A stretch of DNA of 20,000 nt from an uncultured virus (IMG/VR IMGVR_UViG_3300024358_000470) (IMGVR_UViG_3300024358_000470), one strand, 5' to 3'. Positions 11,777-17,908 are shown, counted from the first letter of the stretch. Notes: generated by a model from the sequence alone, not told the origin. A program made the numbers and translations.

Positions 11777-12234
11777 TTGAATACACTCAGTTCAATGGAC
11801 CTTTGAGCAGTAGCACTTGTTCCAGCACCACCAGCAGTAACAGTAGGAACACCAGTTGGTGAAAGAGTACCTGCAAGAGTTCCTTTCTCACCACCAACTT
11901 GAGTTACACTATCTCCGTAGAGATTTGGTGTTCCAATAACACCGTTAGTAACTGTTTGAGTATTAACTGGAGTATCAGCAGCATTGAAACTTTCAGAGAA
12001 AGTAAATGCTTGACCTGGAGTATTAATGTCATAGGTTCCAGCACCACCAACACCTCCAAAGGATGTTGCTTGGATATTGGTTCCTGACGCCGAATAGGAA
12101 GCACCAATTCGAGTTGATTGAACTGCGGCACCATCAACTTTCAATTGAACGGAATCAGTGATTTTTGATGTAATTTCAGCAGCATTAACTGGGATTGCGA
12201 AGAATAACGAAAAGGCTAATAGAAGTCTTTTCAT
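11773..12234 (-). CDS. Exported Gly/Thr-rich beta-strand hypothetical protein
   Basis: Signal peptide MKRLLLAFSLFFAIPVNA-A; ends IELSVFK. Confidence 0.82.
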   Translation of the reverse strand: MKRLLLAFSLFFAIPVNAAEITSKITDSVQLKVDGAAVQSTRIGASYSASGTNIQATSFGGVGGAGTYDINTPGQAFTFSESFNAADTPVNTQTVTNGVIGTPNLYGDSVTQVGGEKGTLAGTLSPTGVPTVTAGGAGTSATAQRSIELSVFK

Positions 12235-12263
12235 TTTCTTATTGTTGTGATAAACACTATGAG

Positions 12264-12270
12264 TATTTAG
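12264..12270 (-). promoter_or_regulatory. Late-promoter-like element for the minus-strand operon
   Basis: CTAAATA on the minus strand about 30 nt upstream of ATG 12234. Confidence 0.45.
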
Positions 12271-12297
12271 GAGAGTGTCCCCATTTGGGGAGGGGGG

Positions 12298-12331
12298 TTG
12301 ACACAGGCGGCAAACCGTAGTATGATAAATA
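12298..12331 (+). promoter_or_regulatory. psbA promoter: sigma70 boxes with an overlapping late-like element
   Basis: TTGACA (12298)-17 nt-TATGAT (12321); ATAAATA at 12325. Confidence 0.75.
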
Positions 12332-12384
12332 GGTAAACAAATGTTACGGAACGCAACGTTCCCTTAACATTGTTAGACACCCGA

Positions 12385-12480
12385 TAACCGAGACCTATGG
12401 GTGTATAAATTACGTCTCTCATATCCCCGCTAAGGGTGCGGGGAGCATAGTATCTCCACCATTTCCCTGATGGTCTTACT
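12385..12480 (+). ncRNA. Structured psbA 5'-UTR RNA, probably the PhotoRC-II-like motif
   Basis: GAGAC/GTCTC stem; TCCCCGC-TAAGGGT-GCGGGGA and ACCAT-TTCCCTG-ATGGT hairpins with complementary loops; lies directly upstream of a phage psbA. Confidence 0.6.
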
Positions 12481-12494
12481 AACTGCTTAAAACA

Positions 12495-13574
12495 ATGACT
12501 GCTACAATTTCACGTCAACGACAATCGAATACTTGGGAACAATTCTGCAACTGGGTCACATCAACCGATAATCGTCTTTATGTCGGTTGGTTCGGAGTCC
12601 TCATGATTCCTTGCCTGCTTGCTGCTACGACTTGTTTCATCATCGCATTCATCGGTGCTCCCCCAGTGGACATTGATGGTATCCGTGAACCCGTTGCTGG
12701 TTCACTCATGTACGGAAACAACATCATCTCTGGTGCTGTTATTCCTTCGTCCAACGCGATTGGACTGCACTTTTATCCCATCTGGGAAGCTGCTTCGCTT
12801 GATGAGTGGCTTTACAACGGTGGTCCTTTCCAACTTGTAGTGTTCCACTTCCTTATCGGTATCTACGCTTACATGGGTCGTGAATGGGAACTTTCATACC
12901 GTCTTGGTATGCGTCCTTGGATCTGTGTTGCTTACTCTGCACCTGTGGCTGCTGCTTCTGCTGTGTTCCTGGTGTATCCTTTCGGTCAAGGTTCTTTCTC
13001 TGATGCGATGCCTCTGGGTATCTCTGGTACGTTCAACTATATGCTTGTGTTCCAGGCAGAGCACAACATCCTGATGCACCCCTTCCACATGCTTGGTGTG
13101 GCTGGTGTCTTTGGAGGTTCTCTGTTCAGTGCTATGCACGGTTCTCTGGTTACTTCCTCACTGGTTCGTGAAACCACTGAGAACGAGTCACAGAACTATG
13201 GTTACAAGTTTGGTCAAGAAGAAGAGACCTATAACATCGTTGCTGCTCACGGTTATTTCGGACGCCTTATTTTCCAATATGCTTCCTTTAATAACTCACG
13301 TTCGCTGCACTTCTTCCTTGCTGCATGGCCTGTAGTTGGTATCTGGTTCACTGCTCTTGGTGTTAGCACCATGGCATTCAACCTCAACGGTTTCAACTTT
13401 AACCAGTCCATCATTGATTCACAGGGTCGTGTCCTCAACACTTGGGCAGATGTTCTGAACCGTGCTGGACTCGGGCTCGAGGTGATGCACGAAAGGAATG
13501 CACACAATTTCCCTCTGGATCTTGCTGCTGCTAGCAACACTCCTGTTGCCCTTACTGCACCCGCAATCGGTTGA
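12495..13574 (+). CDS. psbA: Photosystem II D1 protein, intronless, Glu130 (high-light-type) form
   Basis: [50 protein letters not shown]. Confidence 0.99.
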
Positions 13575-13599
13575 GTTTTATAAAAACTGAATAAGAATG

Positions 13600-13627
13600 A
13601 AGAGACCTTTACAGGTCTCTTTTTTTA
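13600..13627 (+). terminator. psbA terminator
   Basis: AAGAGACCT-TTAC-AGGTCTCTT plus T-run. Confidence 0.85.
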
Positions 13628-13671
13628 TGGTATTATTCATAAATAGTTCCATACCAAACTTCCATACCATA

Positions 13672-14034
13672 ATGAAAACTTGTAGTAGATGTGGAGAAAC
13701 AAAAGAACTTGATAGTTTCTCTAAAAGAAGTAGTAGACCTTCTGGGGTTCAATCAAAGTGTAAGGATTGTGAACGGGAAGTTCGTAGGCAATATTATAAG
13801 ACTCACGAATATGCTAGACGCAGATTTAAACTTACAGAAGACCAATATAATGACCTAATGAAGAATGAGAACTGCCAAATATGTGATGTGGAACTAACCA
13901 AGAAGTGTATAGACCACTGCCACTCTACAAATAAGGTTCGTGGTGTTCTCTGTAACAACTGCAACACTGCATTAGGTCTTGTAGGAGACAACATCAGCAC
14001 TCTTCAAAAGATGATAGAATACCTAAATAACTAA
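13672..14034 (+). CDS. Free-standing Endo VII-family homing endonuclease, F-CphI-like
   Basis: CSRC..CKDC zinc module, then CQIC...CIDHCHSTNKVRGVLCNNCNTALG (DHCH...RGxLCxxCN); directly downstream of psbA; ATG 13672 follows CATAAATA. Confidence 0.85.
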   Translation: MKTCSRCGETKELDSFSKRSSRPSGVQSKCKDCEREVRRQYYKTHEYARRRFKLTEDQYNDLMKNENCQICDVELTKKCIDHCHSTNKVRGVLCNNCNTALGLVGDNISTLQKMIEYLNN

Positions 14035-14049
14035 AAAGTATTCATAAAA

Positions 14050-14784
14050 ATGGACGCACAAGAACTTCGCAATCTTCAAGAAGCATATATGGAAGTTGTT
14101 GAAAATCAGCAACTGGATGAAATCTCTGATAGAAAAGTCAAAGGAATGTTAAGAAAGAGAGATGCACAAGATGTAGATAGTGGTGGTATAAGTGGTGCTT
14201 GGATGGCAAGACGCCGCGCTCATCAGGCAGCAGCAAGAAGAAATGTAAGAACAGGTTCAAATGTTCGTGTCGATTCTGATTTAGCAAAAGAAGAAGTAGA
14301 TGTTTACGATCTAATTCTTTCACACTTACTTGATGAAGGATATGCTGATACTCAACAAGCAGCAGAAGCAATTATGGTGAATATGAGTGAAGAGTGGAGA
14401 GACAATATTATAGAAAGAGAGGATAGTCCTTATGAGAAAGCATCTGATGCTGCATTAGATAAAAGATATGGATATGGTAGAGCATCTGGTGATAAGCGTT
14501 CTTTCGGTAGAGCAGCAAATCGTTCATCTGCTGCCGCTGCCCTTCGTGCTATTAGAAGAGGTGAAAGAAGTGGTAGTGGAACTTCAAGAGAAGCAGGTGC
14601 TGATGCAGTTCATCAGGGTTGGGCAAGAACTGCTAAAACAAGTACAGACCAAACACCAGAAAAGAAACAAAGAAGAGCAAAACTTGCTAATACATCATAT
14701 TCAAATCTTCCCGATGATGAAAAGGAAAAGGATAGAGTATCTTTTGATGCTGTAAGAGCAACTTATAATAGAAACAAAAGATAA
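14050..14784 (+). CDS. Hypothetical protein, probably virion-internal, with a RyR-domain-like C-terminus
   Basis: LQEAYMEV and YDLILSHLLDEGYADT..AEAIMVNMSEEW acidic modules; AVHQGWA...YSNLPDDEKEKDR; CTAAATA upstream. Confidence 0.75.
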   Translation: MDAQELRNLQEAYMEVVENQQLDEISDRKVKGMLRKRDAQDVDSGGISGAWMARRRAHQAAARRNVRTGSNVRVDSDLAKEEVDVYDLILSHLLDEGYADTQQAAEAIMVNMSEEWRDNIIEREDSPYEKASDAALDKRYGYGRASGDKRSFGRAANRSSAAAALRAIRRGERSGSGTSREAGADAVHQGWARTAKTSTDQTPEKKQRRAKLANTSYSNLPDDEKEKDRVSFDAVRATYNRNKR

Positions 14785-14785
14785 T

Positions 14786-14812
14786 AAAAAAGGAGGGATA
14801 AAACCCTCCTTT
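14786..14812. terminator. Hairpin between convergent genes, probably a bidirectional terminator
   Basis: AAAGGAGGG-ATAAAA-CCCTCCTTT preceded by an A-run. Confidence 0.75.
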
Positions 14813-14816
14813 AACT

Positions 14817-15020
14817 TTATTTGGAACTTACAAAATCATTAATGATTTCTGCTTGTTCTAGAACTTGATTAAGTGTTGGAAACTCTGGATAATCCATTGC
14901 TACTTTTTTGTTCTCATCTTCATTCCAACGAACAGCAGTATCATATTCCATGCTAAACTGGTCATTAAGCATATTATATGCTTGCTTAAAGATTTCAAAT
15001 CGAAGTTCATAAGGTGTCAT
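14817..15020 (-). CDS. Hypothetical phage protein (67 aa, MTPYELRFEIFKQAY...)
   Basis: AGGAG RBS upstream of ATG 15020; TTGACT-16 nt-TATAGT promoter at 15090-15063. Confidence 0.75.
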   Translation of the reverse strand: MTPYELRFEIFKQAYNMLNDQFSMEYDTAVRWNEDENKKVAMDYPEFPTLNQVLEQAEIINDFVSSK

Positions 15021-15118
15021 AGATATTCTCCTAATGTGTGTGATGTGTGTTTCCACTAAGAAACTATATCATAAATTATCAAAAAGTCAAGTAATAATAA
15101 AAACCTATCCTCAGTTTT

Positions 15119-15162
15119 CTGAAGCAACTCCTGTTGCTCTCACTGCACCTTCAATTGGTTGA
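15119..15162 (+). pseudogene. psbA: Orphan remnant of a psbA 3' end ([17 protein letters not shown])
   Basis: 31 of 36 nt identical to psbA 13539-13574; no start codon and no upstream psbA sequence. Confidence 0.88.
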
Positions 15163-15187
15163 TAACAACTGAATAACTGATATAATT

Positions 15188-15213
15188 AGAGGGTGTAACA
15201 ACCCTCTTTTTTT
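15188..15213 (+). terminator. Terminator following the psbA remnant
   Basis: AGAGGGT-GTAACA-ACCCTCT plus T-run. Confidence 0.8.
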
Positions 15214-15336
15214 ATGTCTCATAATAATCAACATCATCCTATGGAACCCTGGATCATCTGGGCAGGTGTAGGTATGATGGTATTTACAGTTCTTGTATTT
15301 GTCTTATTCACTCTCGGTCAGATGTATTGGGGATAA
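15214..15336 (+). CDS. Small single-TM protein (40 aa, MSHNNQHHPMEPWIIWAGVGMMVFTVLVFVLFTLGQMYWG)
   Basis: Read by hand; clear TM helix; fills the gap before the psbD promoter. Confidence 0.6.
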   Translation: MSHNNQHHPMEPWIIWAGVGMMVFTVLVFVLFTLGQMYWG

Positions 15337-15349
15337 GCACAAACACTCA

Positions 15350-15383
15350 TTGACTACTTTGTTAAGGAATGTTAAGATAAATA
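15350..15383 (+). promoter_or_regulatory. psbD promoter: sigma70-like boxes, TGTTAAG direct repeat and a late-like element
   Basis: TTGACT-17 nt-TAAGAT; TGTTAAG at 15360 and 15370; ATAAATA at 15377; AAGGAGG RBS downstream. Confidence 0.65.
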
Positions 15384-15404
15384 TGAGAAATAACTAAGGA
15401 GGTT

Positions 15405-16466
15405 ATGACTTCTTCTACACTTTCACAACCTATTCAACAACGAGGATGGTTTGATGTACTCGATGACTGGCTTAAAAGAGACCGTTTCGTTTTTGTTGGC
15501 TGGTCTGGACTTCTTCTTTTTCCCACTGCTTATCTTGCTCTTGGTGGTTGGATTACTGGGACAACTTTCGTCACGAGTTGGTATACTCACGGGCTTGCGA
15601 GTTCCTATCTTGAGGGTGCAAACTTTCTTACTGCAGCAGTTAGTACTCCAGCAGATTCTATGGGTCATTCTCTTCTTCTGCTCTGGGGTCCTGAGGCTCA
15701 AGGGGATATCGTCAGGTGGTTCCAACTTGGGGGACTATGGACTTTTGTGGCGCTCCACGGGGCCTTTAGTCTGATCGGATTTATGCTTCGCCAGTTTGAG
15801 ATCTCACGACTGGTAGGCATCCGTCCTTACAACGCAATTGCATTCTCTGGTCCCATCGCAGTGTTTGTGAGCGTCTTCCTGATGTACCCTCTGGGTCAAT
15901 CCAGTTGGTTCTTTGCACCTTCCTTTGGTGTTGCTGCTATCTTCAGGTTCCTTCTGTTCCTTCAGGGTTTTCACAACTGGACTCTTAACCCATTTCATAT
16001 GATGGGTGTTGCTGGTATACTGGGTGGAGCACTGCTCTGTGCTATTCACGGAGCAACTGTAGAAAACACACTATTTGAAGATAGTGATCAAGCAAATACA
16101 TTCAAGGCATTCGAACCAACACAAGAGGAAGAAACCTATTCAATGGTTACTGCTAACCGTTTCTGGTCGCAAATCTTTGGAATTGCTTTTAGTAACAAGC
16201 GTTGGTTACATTTCTTTATGCTCTTTGTTCCCGTCATGGGTCTCTGGACATCTTCTATCGGGATTATCGGTCTTGCTCTCAATCTTCGTGCTTACGACTT
16301 TGTTAGTCAGGAGATTGAAGCAGCCGTCAATCCGGAATACGAAACTTTCTACACGAAGAATATACTTCTTAACGAAGGGCTTCGTGCTTGGATGGCTCCC
16401 GTAGACCAACCACATGAAAATTTTGTTTTTCCAGAGGAAGTTTTGCCTCGGGGCAACGCACTTTGA
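15405..16466 (+). CDS. psbD: Photosystem II D2 protein
   Basis: [54 protein letters not shown]. Confidence 0.99.
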
Positions 16467-16470
16467 TTTT

Positions 16471-16498
16471 AAAGACCTCATTGTTGGGGTCTTTTTTA
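16471..16498 (+). terminator. psbD terminator
   Basis: AAAGACCTCA-TTGT-TGGGGTCTTT plus T-run. Confidence 0.8.
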
Positions 16499-16526
16499 TT
16501 TACATAAGACCCAAAGTATGATAAAA

Positions 16527-16534
16527 TATAAATA
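16527..16534 (+). promoter_or_regulatory. T4-type late promoter for the endonuclease gene
   Basis: TATAAATA 25 nt upstream of ATG 16560. Confidence 0.75.
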
Positions 16535-16559
16535 ATAATAGATATTCAAAGTTAGGATA

Positions 16560-17129
16560 ATGCCCTTAAATAATAAATCAAAACCTTGTGGTGCTTTGAT
16601 TGGTAAAAAATTTGGAAAACTTACTGTCCTGAAAGAAGAAGTAGTCTTTAAGAGTGGGAAGAATAGAGTTTATTCAACTTGTAAATGTGAATGTGGTGGA
16701 GAAAAAACTTGCGAGAGATATGGTCTTATGAATGGTTCAACTACTAGTTGTGGGTGTGTTAGGAGAGAAACTACTATTGCTTTTAATAAAACTAAAAAGA
16801 AACCAGAAGGTGAATTAAAAAAAGACGATAGAAGATATAGTATGTTTCATAATGCTCAACATAGGGCAAAAAGAAAGGGTATTCCATTTAGTATAACTAT
16901 AGATGATATTATTATTCCAGAAACTTGTCCTTTACTTGGAATACCTCTTGTATCTACTAATGATAAAAGAGATCCAAGAAATCCTAGTTTAGATCAAAAG
17001 GTTCCTGGTAAAGGATATACCCCCGATAATATTTGGGTTATATCTTCAAGAGCGAATGCCCTAAAATGGGACGCATCCCTACAAGAATTAGAACTCCTAG
17101 TAGAAAACCTCAAATGCTTCTCATCTTAG
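16560..17129 (+). CDS. Putative free-standing homing endonuclease (His-Me-finger/HNH-like)
   Basis: GKKFGKLTV..CKCECG..SCGC module typical of phage HNH/AP2 endonucleases; CPLLG..PSLDQKVPGKGYTPDNIWVISSRAN beta-beta-alpha-like core. Confidence 0.75.
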   Translation: MPLNNKSKPCGALIGKKFGKLTVLKEEVVFKSGKNRVYSTCKCECGGEKTCERYGLMNGSTTSCGCVRRETTIAFNKTKKKPEGELKKDDRRYSMFHNAQHRAKRKGIPFSITIDDIIIPETCPLLGIPLVSTNDKRDPRNPSLDQKVPGKGYTPDNIWVISSRANALKWDASLQELELLVENLKCFSS

Positions 17130-17188
17130 TTCTCTTCCAACTTTTTGGAATCCTAATGTTTATATTATCTGTTATGCAGGACTTATGA
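17114..17188 (+). CDS. Possible hydrophobic micro-protein (24 aa, MLLILVLFQLFGILMFILSVMQDL)
   Basis: ATGA coupling to the next ORF. Confidence 0.35.
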   Translation: MLLILVLFQLFGILMFILSVMQDL

Positions 17189-17316
17189 TAACTTCTACAA
17201 CACCATACAAACTCGCAGAAATTATTCGTGATACATGGCCTGGACTTTACAGACCACCAGTAAAGACTTATAATAAATCTTCTATAAATATTCCACAAAA
17301 TTGCAGAAAAAAATGA
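17185..17316 (+). CDS. Small hypothetical protein (43 aa, MITSTTPYKLAEIIRDTWPGLYRPP...)
   Basis: ATGA overlaps at both ends. Confidence 0.5.
   Translation: MITSTTPYKLAEIIRDTWPGLYRPPVKTYNKSSINIPQNCRKK
17283..17290 (+). promoter_or_regulatory. T4-type late promoter
   Basis: TATAAATA upstream of glutaredoxin. Confidence 0.65.
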
Positions 17317-17549
17317 AGTTCACAGTTTATTCAAAAGATGGTTGCCCATATTGCACAAAAGTTCAACAGGTGCTAGAGTTGGCACAACTGCAACATGTAG
17401 TCTACAAATTGAATAGTGATTTTAGTAGAGAAGAATTTTATTCAGAATTCGGAGAGGGATCTACCTTTCCTCAAGTGATTGTAAATGACCAACACATTGG
17501 TGGATGCACCGATACTGTTCAATATCTAAAGGAGCAAAATCTAGTTTAA
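17313..17549 (+). CDS. Glutaredoxin (NrdC-like)
   Basis: CPYC active site, TFPQV, IGGCTD. Confidence 0.92.
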   Translation: MKFTVYSKDGCPYCTKVQQVLELAQLQHVVYKLNSDFSREEFYSEFGEGSTFPQVIVNDQHIGGCTDTVQYLKEQNLV

Positions 17550-17908
17550 TGGAAAACACCATTCACGAAGTTTGTAACGATGTAGAAAAAGCAATTGATT
17601 ATGCTTTCAATGGTCAATTTGTTTTGAGTTTTTATGATTATCTAAAAGTTCGTGGAACTAAAAAAGTAGAGGTTGAACAATTTATTGAAAGTAATACAGC
17701 ACACGAGCTGAGTAATCTTGTAATGGATTTGGATGATTATCTTGAGGGTGGATCAGATGAGATTCATAAACAACTTCGTGAAGGATATGGACATATTCCA
17801 AAACCACAAGCAAGAAAAATAAGAAATTACCTTTACGGTATTCTTGAAGATGCCTGGAGATATAATCATGACAAAAGACCAGGAAGGAGAAAGAAGCAAA
17901 CTAAATAA
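17549..17908 (+). CDS. Hypothetical phage protein (119 aa)
   Basis: TAATG coupling to glutaredoxin. Confidence 0.8.
   Translation: MENTIHEVCNDVEKAIDYAFNGQFVLSFYDYLKVRGTKKVEVEQFIESNTAHELSNLVMDLDDYLEGGSDEIHKQLREGYGHIPKPQARKIRNYLYGILEDAWRYNHDKRPGRRKKQTK

Follow-up and report, generated by a model that had tools for sequence, protein, structure and literature searches.

The question raised by the locus described here is how the end of psbA, the gene for D1, came to stand twice in the same genome. The locus lies in a 20,000-nucleotide stretch of DNA from an uncultured virus (IMGVR_UViG_3300024358_000470), which is part of a 99-kb IMG/VR virus record and is called the window throughout. The psbA–psbD region of the window matched 389 phage records, nearly all of them from Synechococcus and Prochlorococcus cyanophages, and the four matching records checked for taxonomy all belong to the Kyanoviridae; the window comes from a T4-like, Kyanoviridae-like cyanophage. 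Between a complete psbA gene and a second, detached copy of its 3′ end lie a small endonuclease gene and a piece of unrelated DNA. We consider this arrangement to be, rather probably, the natural fossil of a one-sided homing event that was joined by microhomology and captured cargo genes on the way.

Two copies of the psbA 3′ end

The functional psbA gene (12495..13574, plus strand; Pfam PF00124, E 1.7e-89) is an uninterrupted open reading frame (ORF) of 359 codons. Its last 36 bases, stop codon included (13539..13574, plus strand; copy 1), recur at 15127–15162 (copy 2) with 31 of 36 bases identical. Of the five differences, GCC/GCT, CTT/CTC, CCC/CCT and ATC/ATT leave the psbA protein unchanged, and only GCA/TCA alters it, from Ala to Ser. 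When copy 1 is compared with the rest of the window, the best match is at 15127; among 500 mononucleotide shuffles of the window, the largest match to copy 1 was 24, with a mean maximum of 19.8, and none reached 31. The homology of copy 2 to functional psbA alleles extends 8 nt further leftward, to 15119. Each copy is followed by the box TAAnAACTGAATAA (13581–13594 and 15163–15176), and after the box both have a terminator-like hairpin, a T-run and an ATG (13599–13622; 15188–15207). The repeat with its five differences and the shared box and terminator had been described in an earlier note made from the window alone (the original prediction), and both descriptions are confirmed in the sequence.

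The repeats are short, and metagenome unitigs break inside orf244, one of the genes between the two copies, which could point to an assembly artefact. Against an artefact, four IMG/VR contigs from other samples (L007–L010) encode nine proteins, from psbA to the glutaredoxin gene, that are 100% identical to those of the window, and their two tail regions (131 nt and 126 nt) are also 100% identical; two further contigs, L017 and L018, contain the second copy and its joint. In each of the 24 listed public runs, over nine tenths of the words sampled from the stretch are present. Per-run contigs were compared for four runs (X1, X20, X5 and X23). Both junctions, whose support the original prediction had proposed as a check, are bridged with zero mismatches by contigs from two DNA runs (X1, records 2 and 7; X20, records 9 and 13) and from the RNA-library run X5 (records 29 and 32); the RNA-library run X23 has a contig across the right junction and none across the left. 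One X23 RNA contig stops at 13587 with adapter letters, and the X5 RNA run reads through this point; contig depths in the RNA libraries are unable to rank genes. The only breaks in the per-run contigs are inside orf244, where the paralogues of the genome share sequence. The arrangement is thus genuine and no assembly artefact. Together with the different ancestries of the DNA behind the two copies, described in the following section, this leaves an artefact or an in-place tandem duplication with a practically negligible probability, and we count that reading as refuted.

The empty site and the ancestry of the two tails

To find the site without its insertion, IMG/VR viral contigs were searched with the exact 20-mer at 15167–15186, which lies behind copy 2, and 68 loci were obtained. 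At 53 of these the site is empty: the psbA tail belongs to a full psbA and is followed by the box, the terminator, orf40 and usually psbD, the order that the original prediction had expected of relatives without the insertion. A stranded psbA remnant is present at six loci, namely the four window-identical contigs and L088/L148, which are the same as L017/L018. Another six loci have other inserts and an unrecognisable tail, one is cut by the contig end and two are away from psbA.

When the remnant and the DNA after it (window 15116–15216) are aligned with the empty-site locus L106, 95 of 102 positions are identical. This alignment, at 93%, includes the DNA behind the remnant; over the 36 coding bases by themselves the alleles are too diverse for either copy to be placed. 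Behind copy 1 the DNA is of another kind, with 62% identity to that behind copy 2. It is 85% identical (88 of 103 aligned positions) to an endonuclease-linked unit in phage S-SKS1, which is also present in L255, L260 and L262. The post-stop DNA of the two copies therefore represents different alleles with different ancestries, which excludes an in-place duplication. On the strength of these alignments, copy 2 is identified as the stranded psbA 3′ end of an empty-site haplotype. The original prediction had proposed that an old tail was stranded here, and in this respect it agrees with the comparison; the different allele behind copy 1 also supports it.

The endonuclease-linked post-psbA unit (13581..13636, plus strand) consists of the box TAAAAACTGAATAA at 13581–13594, a terminator hairpin GAGACC..GGTCTC (13599–13622) and a promoter-like TTTACA-17-TATTAT (13608–13636). 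Its counterpart at the empty site (15159..15207, plus strand) contains a promoter-like TTGATA-16-TATAAT, the box TAACAACTGAATAA and a hairpin GAGGGT..ACCCTC. In this second unit the psbA stop region, GGTTGATAA, also serves as the −35 box of the promoter-like site, the hexamer overlapping the last codon of psbA and its stop; this holds for the window and the 53 empty-site loci alike. As the −10 box directly adjoins the terminator hairpin, the site would give transcripts whose 5′ ends lie within the hairpin and which would thus avoid termination. Such an overlap of promoter-like site and terminator after psbA resembles the composite promoter–terminator motifs of T4-like phages.

The right joint and its cargo

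The insertion contains, after the endonuclease gene, two cargo genes: orf244 (14050..14784, plus strand) and orf79 (14817..15056, minus strand), both from the ORF list. They converge on a bidirectional terminator-like hairpin (14789..14812). Behind them, at 15097..15124 on the plus strand, are the first 9 codons of a 65-amino-acid gene (orf65′), whose start codon is now ATA. An Endo VII-type gene and two unrelated genes had been noted earlier between the copies; these genes are indeed present, and the truncated third one had been missed.

The intact form of the third gene revealed the nature of the right junction. It is found at 2605–2802 in L059, a contig with no psbA within 4 kb, where the complete 65-amino-acid ORF, MKTYQQFSEDIEQRR, comes after an orf79 relative (86% identical) and the divergent spacer also present in the window. 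The first 28 nt of this ORF match window 15097–15124. The match to orf65 reaches TCTGAAG, and beyond this point the window reads as psbA, CAACTCCT. Twelve intact orf65 loci, nine of them with an MKTY/MKTF-type 5′ end, were aligned with the window and L017; eight of the 12 read TTCTCTGAAGA, and the psbA alleles L106 and L121 read GCTGCTGAAGCAACTCCT. The shared hexanucleotide stands in orf65 as tCTGAAGat and at psbA codons 346–348 of L106-type alleles as gCTGAAGca. By alignment, then, the right joint (15119..15124, plus strand) can be identified as a 6-nt microhomology, CTGAAG, leading from orf65 codon 9 to psbA codon 347. Behind it, the stranded remnant (15125..15162, plus strand) comprises the end of codon 348, codons 349–359 and the stop codon. 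The equivalent CTGAAG in functional psbA is at 13531–13536, 35–40 nt 3′ of the position at which the psbA intron of S-PM2 is inserted.

The truncation of orf65 at the joint means that the two cargo genes belong to a three-gene piece. Away from psbA, orf79 on the minus strand followed by orf65 on the plus strand is found in at least seven viral contigs (L157/L186, L161/L173, L168/L178, L175, L176, L179 and L198). An orf244-like gene is on the far side of orf79 in L168/L178, L175, L176, L179 and L198, and 3′ of orf65 in L157/L186; in L059 it also comes after orf65. The orf79–orf65 pair was found in 7 of 44 metagenome orf65 loci, in a scan that covered 32 of the 64 parts of the collection and many contigs of only 1–4 kb. 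On the other side, the left edge of the cargo is inside the last endonuclease codons.

Regarding the individual cargo genes, orf79 has 184 relatives in viral contigs. Its translation probably begins at the ATG at 15020 (67 amino acids), which is preceded by AGGAG, with a promoter-like site at 15090–15063. For orf244 there are 460 relatives in viral contigs and weak PHROG matches to families without assigned function. Cultured phages gave only partial matches, in six records for orf244 and one for orf79. Pfam gave no match for orf244, orf79 or orf65, and for the functions of the cargo the Atlas scores were 0.77, below the level of a lead. The orf244 family (L012–L086, L329–L372) is large in cyanophages, often with several copies per contig. 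Its short forms of about 115–190 amino acids end ...MVNMSEEWRxSI(I/L)G, the 244-amino-acid form of the window has an extra C-terminal part, and L017 has two partial copies in tandem.

None of the 36 other kept relatives of the endonuclease lineage contains this cargo, which is a one-off capture through microhomology and no standing part of the mobile unit. The original prediction had seen the insertion as a module that delivers genes. Cargo is indeed present, but it was captured in one illegitimate event that two lineages have inherited, and a single event does not demonstrate a general role as a gene-delivery cassette.

The position of the joint also bears on PeSL-type shuffling, in which a circular or excised module would integrate in Campbell fashion within the ~60-nt homology of tail plus box and leave direct repeats. 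Box, hairpin and promoter-like hexamers do follow both copies; composite promoter–terminator motifs are reported, in the available part of the source, to mediate indels in T4-like phages (PMC4122927); and in one related contig, L274, the endonuclease gene is alone between two copies of box plus terminator. However, the right joint of the window is in coding DNA, between orf65 codon 9 and psbA codon 347, and outside the regulatory motif. The post-stop units, at only 62% identity, would be a poor substrate for homologous exchange, and formation of the circle would still require the illegitimate step at CTGAAG. We regard this origin as quite improbable.

Another possibility is that the second copy has been kept because it is functional, either as the 3′ part of a chimeric 42-amino-acid ORF (15034–15162) or as the −35 region of the orf40/psbD promoter. 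The frame is open in the window and, by eye, in L017, and the TTGATA-16-TATAAT site scores 11 of 12 positions. Over the 126 nt around the remnant (15090–15215), all five differences between the window and L017 are within 16 nt (15141–15156; L017 4828–4843), four of them being synonymous in the psbA frame, and the 105 nucleotides flanking the remnant outside this stretch are identical. On the other hand, the 5′ part of the 42-amino-acid frame is closed in L059 (by eye), the orf65 start codon is ATA in both the window and L017 lineages, and the L017 remnant has changed Pro to Ser where the inspected functional tails keep Pro. The promoter requires only the last 6–9 nt of the copy, and not 44. 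Function would explain retention, not origin, and it is compatible with a homing event; as an account of the second copy we find it very improbable.

Two further candidates concerning the remnant carry little weight. The clustering of the five differences may reflect patchy gene conversion from functional psbA tails; given 31 differences in 640 nt nearby, a rough scan estimate is only marginal and statistically insecure. Short “remnants” (...GGTTGA before the box) in L111, L124 and L136 were not accepted as proof, because short orf244-family genes often end ...SI(I/L)G, TGA TAA away from psbA.

An F-CphI-type endonuclease linked to psbA

The free-standing gene that follows the first post-psbA unit (13672..14034, plus strand) encodes 120 amino acids and matches Pfam PF02945, Endonuclease_7 (E 5.7e-18), and phrog_2633 (E 7e-37). 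Its product aligns over the full length with F-CphI of S-PM2 (36% identity, E 1e-22, BLASTP). The residues aligned to F-CphI C84, D101, H102, H104, R110 and N118 are all kept, in the blocks CQIC, DHCH, KVR and NCN, and the catalytic motif of Endo VII, a zinc CX2C followed by D, H, H, R and N, is thus present. According to the available part of the F-CphI study by Fang et al. (2018), C84, D101, H102, R110 and N118 were mutated and found to be needed, and H104 belongs to the named DHHRN consensus (PMC6083498). These matches and the alignment assign the gene to the F-CphI-type (DHHRN/Endo VII) family of homing endonucleases, as the original prediction had anticipated in calling it a homing endonuclease, and its presumed target is psbA.

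In viral contigs 101 relatives of the endonuclease were found, of which the best 80 were kept, and linkage was counted on the 41 with at least 52% identity. At 36 of the 41 loci psbA is ~100 nt 5′ on the same strand; four loci are cut by the contig end and one has a convergent psbA. The gene is therefore free-standing beside its presumed target, and its presence is patchy, 53 of the 68 empty-site survey loci being without an insert. Two psbA tails occur, among the 41 loci, only in the window-identical contigs.

The left context of the endonuclease lineage is constant and consists of the box, the GAGACC hairpin, a promoter-like TATAAT and the endonuclease gene. The right context varies: the gene is followed by the orf40 start codon (L253, L255, L260 and L272), the psbD leader (L254 and L257), a second box and terminator (L274) or other ORFs (L267 and L270). 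Homology between endonuclease alleles ends at ...(E/Q)YL, after which the alleles read NN*, NVS*, STNTH* or QEH* according to the DNA that follows. As the homology stops at ...EYL, the last two codons and the stop codon come from the DNA upstream of orf244. S-SKS1, a phage of another genus (Llyrvirus), has the same unit with an 88% identical enzyme, and beyond the 3′ end of the enzyme gene it is no longer homologous to the window.

Two related loci deserve mention on their own account. At about 4360–4470 of L274/L275, the endonuclease alone (75% identical) is placed between two TTGATA-box-terminator copies, with no cargo, a second and smaller duplication footprint at the psbA site. In L152, where psbA contains an intron, ~770 nt separate the psbA stop from an Endo VII gene (41% identical to that of the window), and an extra ORF, nuclease-like by eye, is found in this interval.

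Relatives of the insertion itself differ in the enzyme that they carry. L017/L018 keep the C-terminal part of orf244, orf79, orf65′ and the remnant, with 6 mismatches to the window in 550 nt across 14329–14878, while their psbD differs by ~12% (estimated from bins) and psbA with its near flanks by 16%. Their Endo VII gene is only 32% identical to that of the window, and they have an extra partial orf244. L011 has orf244 and only the last endonuclease codons, and neither orf79 nor the remnant. The best reading of these alignments is that the endonuclease of L017/L018 was later replaced by a distant allele and that this endonuclease type was lost by deletion in the L011 lineage. Window, L017/L018 and L011 look like the stages of invasion, replacement and loss of a homing endonuclease gene.

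The target site and recoding of linked psbA alleles

F-CphI cuts the intron-less psbA of S-BM4, and the S-PM2 intron blocks cutting, as stated in the available part of PMC6083498. The target was placed in the window by means of the 60-bp substrate and the S-PM2 exon ends. The substrate (oligo SBM4-60Top, PMC6083498 supplementary file 6, compared by eye) is equivalent to 13466..13525 on the plus strand, and the intron insertion site of S-PM2 maps between 13496 and 13497. The window psbA is free of a group I intron: it is a single ORF, and no Rfam intron family was found in 12000–17600. In the relatives L256, L257, L277, L285 and L286, psbA is broken at codons 334–337. Interruption at these codons, which correspond to the S-PM2 intron site, was also seen in L124, L152, L278–L280, L293 and L299, and an endonuclease gene is often right behind a psbA interrupted there; in L102, L138, L147, L278 and L284 psbA is in at least three pieces.

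At the codon for Arg334 the window has AGG and the cleavable S-BM4 allele CGC. Next to the intron insertion site, the sequence is CAC GAA AGR AAY GCN CAY in the window and in most of the intron-less alleles linked to an endonuclease, whereas most unlinked alleles and the S-BM4 substrate read CAC GAG CGY AAY GCT CAC. Among distinct 60-nt alleles, AGR at Arg334 is found in 24 of 27 that are linked to an endonuclease and in 11 of 37 that are unlinked (Fisher p 2.5e-6, uncorrected for relatedness); the count covers intron-less site alleles, L258 and L259 having been dropped as their “site” is intron sequence. The linked alleles span several distant endonuclease lineages, whose enzymes are 32–100% identical to that of the window. 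This pattern is as expected if resistant targets travel with the enzyme, and resistance of the recoded alleles is a prediction from their sequence. Its determinant would probably be the intron insertion site (~13488–13505), outside the 36-nt tail. The cut-resistant tail that the original prediction had attributed to the module thus needs to be modified: linked psbA alleles are recoded, but the likely determinant is at the intron site, and the tail is mosaic.

A one-sided homing event as the probable origin

From the anatomy of the insertion, the empty site, the joint, the enzyme family, the strict linkage to psbA and the association with recoding, we infer that a cut of psbA by the enzyme started the event, and in what order the steps followed. 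On its travels the endonuclease gene would be accompanied by the psbA 3′ part, by a terminator of the GAGACC type and by a promoter of its own. An empty-site genome would have been broken in psbA near the intron insertion site, at the equivalent of 13496|13497. The left end of the break would then have invaded the psbA of a co-infecting, endonuclease-bearing donor, and copying would have proceeded through the donor psbA 3′ end, the endonuclease gene and the ~1.1 kb behind it (orf244, orf79 and the start of orf65). As there was no homology on the right side, the new strand would have been joined to the resected right end through CTGAAG, and the last 12–14 psbA codons of the recipient, with their promoter and terminator, would have been left stranded before orf40. 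AGG at Arg334 and neighbouring synonymous changes would shield the new psbA from the enzyme. As stated above, we hold such a one-sided homing event to be rather probable.

Ordinary illegitimate, that is unequal, recombination between two co-infecting collinear phages at CTGAAG could give the same product, with the endonuclease as a mere neighbour that was present in the left-hand parent beforehand or came in later. The joint is a plain 6-nt microhomology, recombination goes on constantly in T4-type phages, and viability alone would keep joints 3′ of a complete psbA and 5′ of the orf40/psbD promoter-like site; the mosaic patch in the tail and the missing donor, detailed below, can be counted on the same side. 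It does not explain, however, why 36 of 41 contigs have an endonuclease of this lineage at precisely this site, or why linked alleles are recoded at the F-CphI site. The related F-CphI cuts psbA 35–40 nt from the joint, according to the available part of PMC6083498, and on its left the insertion has, in full, the haplotype linked to the endonuclease in S-SKS1, L260 and L262. A step at CTGAAG is common to unequal recombination, PeSL-type shuffling and homing, and what sets them apart is whether the event was started by the enzyme; we judge recombination with a bystander enzyme to be unlikely, though deserving of some weight.

Several observations speak against the homing origin. The endonuclease is only 36% identical to F-CphI, and its psbA cleavage site is a predicted one. 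The AGR association ignores relatedness, and it has exceptions on both sides: 11 unlinked alleles have AGR, and three linked ones (L087, L272 and L291) have CGN. The tail at 13515–13574 is only 75–78% identical to the closest endonuclease alleles compared (L260, L262, L273 and L253), while its flanks are 88–96% identical to L260, L262 and L273. This segment is a mosaic patch, and arrival of the tail with the endonuclease therefore cannot be demonstrated. Across 35 other distinct alleles, segment identities to the window psbA fall in the last 180 nt. This end of psbA is more variable in phages generally, and its variability masks the left breakpoint of the imported tract; against the window, S-SKS1 and nine endonuclease-linked alleles give a mosaic with no clean tract. 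The expected donor, with psbA, endonuclease, orf244, orf79 and an intact orf65 in succession, was not found among the 12 viral and 44 metagenome orf65 loci, the latter drawn from 32 of the 64 parts of the collection and many of them on contigs of only 1–4 kb, and a single event, in two lineages, is documented. Finally, joints upstream of TTGATA may be no more than the viable ones, this hexamer serving as −35 box in the promoter-like site of orf40/psbD. Where the joint lies therefore says less about where the cut was made, and selection for orf40/psbD expression could also explain joints at or before the psbA stop.

Neighbouring features

The insertion is placed in an otherwise familiar gene order. 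A PhotoRC-II RNA motif, a known cis-regulatory element whose presence here is expected, is found 5′ of psbA and outside the insertion (12365..12458, plus strand; Rfam RF01717, 84.1 bits, E 3e-14), and is mentioned for context only. On the right, the remnant is followed by orf40 (15214..15336, plus strand; phrog_7358, E 5e-17), a small membrane-like ORF that stands directly after psbA at empty sites, and by psbD, the gene for D2 (15405..16466, plus strand; Pfam PF00124).

Between psbD and a small ORF (17185–17316) there is a second free-standing endonuclease-like gene (16560–17129), which matches phrog_3322, “endonuclease” (E 1.8e-31), and has no Pfam match. Relatives of it, 39–70% identical, are found 3′ of psbD in L017, L050, L101, L130, L274 and L289, and S-SKS1 likewise has an “endonuclease” 3′ of psbD. 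No duplicated psbD tail was seen beside this gene by eye in 17080–17330. The small ORF contains a short conserved coding motif, KLAEIIRDTWP.LY, which most IMG/VR loci, like the window, have 3′ of psbD, and which is just 5′ of psbD in the cultured phages S-B05, S-SM1 and WH25-B (L002 1932–2003, L003 1726–1791 and L004 1527–1592). It may mark another recurrent rearrangement boundary.

Implications

Free-standing homing endonucleases sit at boundaries of genetic exchange in phages, and to our knowledge the way in which they import unrelated genes has so far been mostly inferred. The locus offers a base-resolved natural example with its empty site, occupied site, microhomology joint and the source block of its cargo; among related contigs there are also a lineage with a replaced endonuclease and a remnant-free deletion lineage. 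Immunity by synonymous recoding, without an intron, would, if it exists, bear on how mobile introns and endonucleases share a target in the globally important psbA. In outline the original prediction was largely right, and its interpretation is partly supported. A full-text literature search, as far as its partly available sources go, gave no earlier report of a psbA remnant beside a phage endonuclease.

A wider and more tentative proposal, which we consider doubtful, is that psbA serves as a portable homology arm for cyanophage gene flow. Endonucleases cutting its conserved 3′ region would start one-sided repairs time and again, and these would drag the DNA behind the donor endonuclease into the psbA–psbD spacer of unrelated phages, even across genera (S-SKS1 and Kyanoviridae-like phages), the enzyme being later swapped or lost and the cargo retained. 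If this were true, homing endonucleases, and not integrases or the shuffling of regulatory motifs, would be a principal driver of the turnover of accessory genes at this hotspot. The stranded tail and the CTGAAG joint would then be the first natural phage fossil of the mechanism at base resolution, within the limits of the same literature search.

Comparison with known systems

The closest known system is that of S-PM2, in which F-CphI (ORF177) was reportedly described by Zeng et al. in 2009 as a free-standing endonuclease adjacent to psbA. An F-CphI-type endonuclease at psbA is therefore known; what is new here is an intron-free psbA, the probable natural footprint of one-sided homing and the cargo. 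The two loci share the place of the enzyme gene after the psbA terminator, the catalytic motif and psbA as presumed target. They differ in that S-PM2 is protected by a group I intron (“collaborative homing”), whereas the protection of the intron-free window psbA, if any, would be by synonymous recoding. In addition, S-PM2 has no psbA remnant, and the gene that follows, S-PM2p178, is unrelated to orf244.

Fungal mitochondrial mORFs, whose endonucleases belong to families other than the Endo VII-motif one, have a comparable architecture. Those with a carboxy-terminal duplication, in atp6 of Allomyces macrogynus and in atp6, atp9, cox2 and nad3 of Glomus, combine a functional C-terminus, an endonuclease gene and the native C-terminus stranded 3′, the native copy being closer to relatives without the element, as described in the available part of PMC3630166. 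The same order is found in the window. The mORFs are organelle elements, often in frame with the host gene and, as far as that source goes, without extra cargo; in the window, by contrast, a terminator and a promoter separate psbA from the enzyme gene, and cargo follows the latter.

Among T4-like systems, the intron-less homing of SegF and MobE resembles the present case in that a free-standing gene is located between conserved genes, is patchily distributed and moves together with its flanks (PMC2790892, PMC3037559, in their available parts). Such normal homing, according to the same texts, needs homology on two sides and leaves no duplication. The hairpin-plus-promoter units of PeSL motifs also flank small optional genes, as far as the available text of PMC4122927 goes, but the joint of the window is outside such a motif. 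The nearest precedent for the mechanism itself is the “one-sided”, microhomology-joined illegitimate repair seen in T4 intron homing (Parker et al. 1999, as cited in the available part of the review PMC2988022). Homology on a single side, a microhomology joint and resection from the cut are common to both, and the product architecture predicted from that repair matches the window. In the part of the review at hand, the T4 case is a laboratory construct with an intron endonuclease; here the event would be a natural one, in which the endonuclease is free-standing and ~1.1 kb of unrelated genes came in as well.

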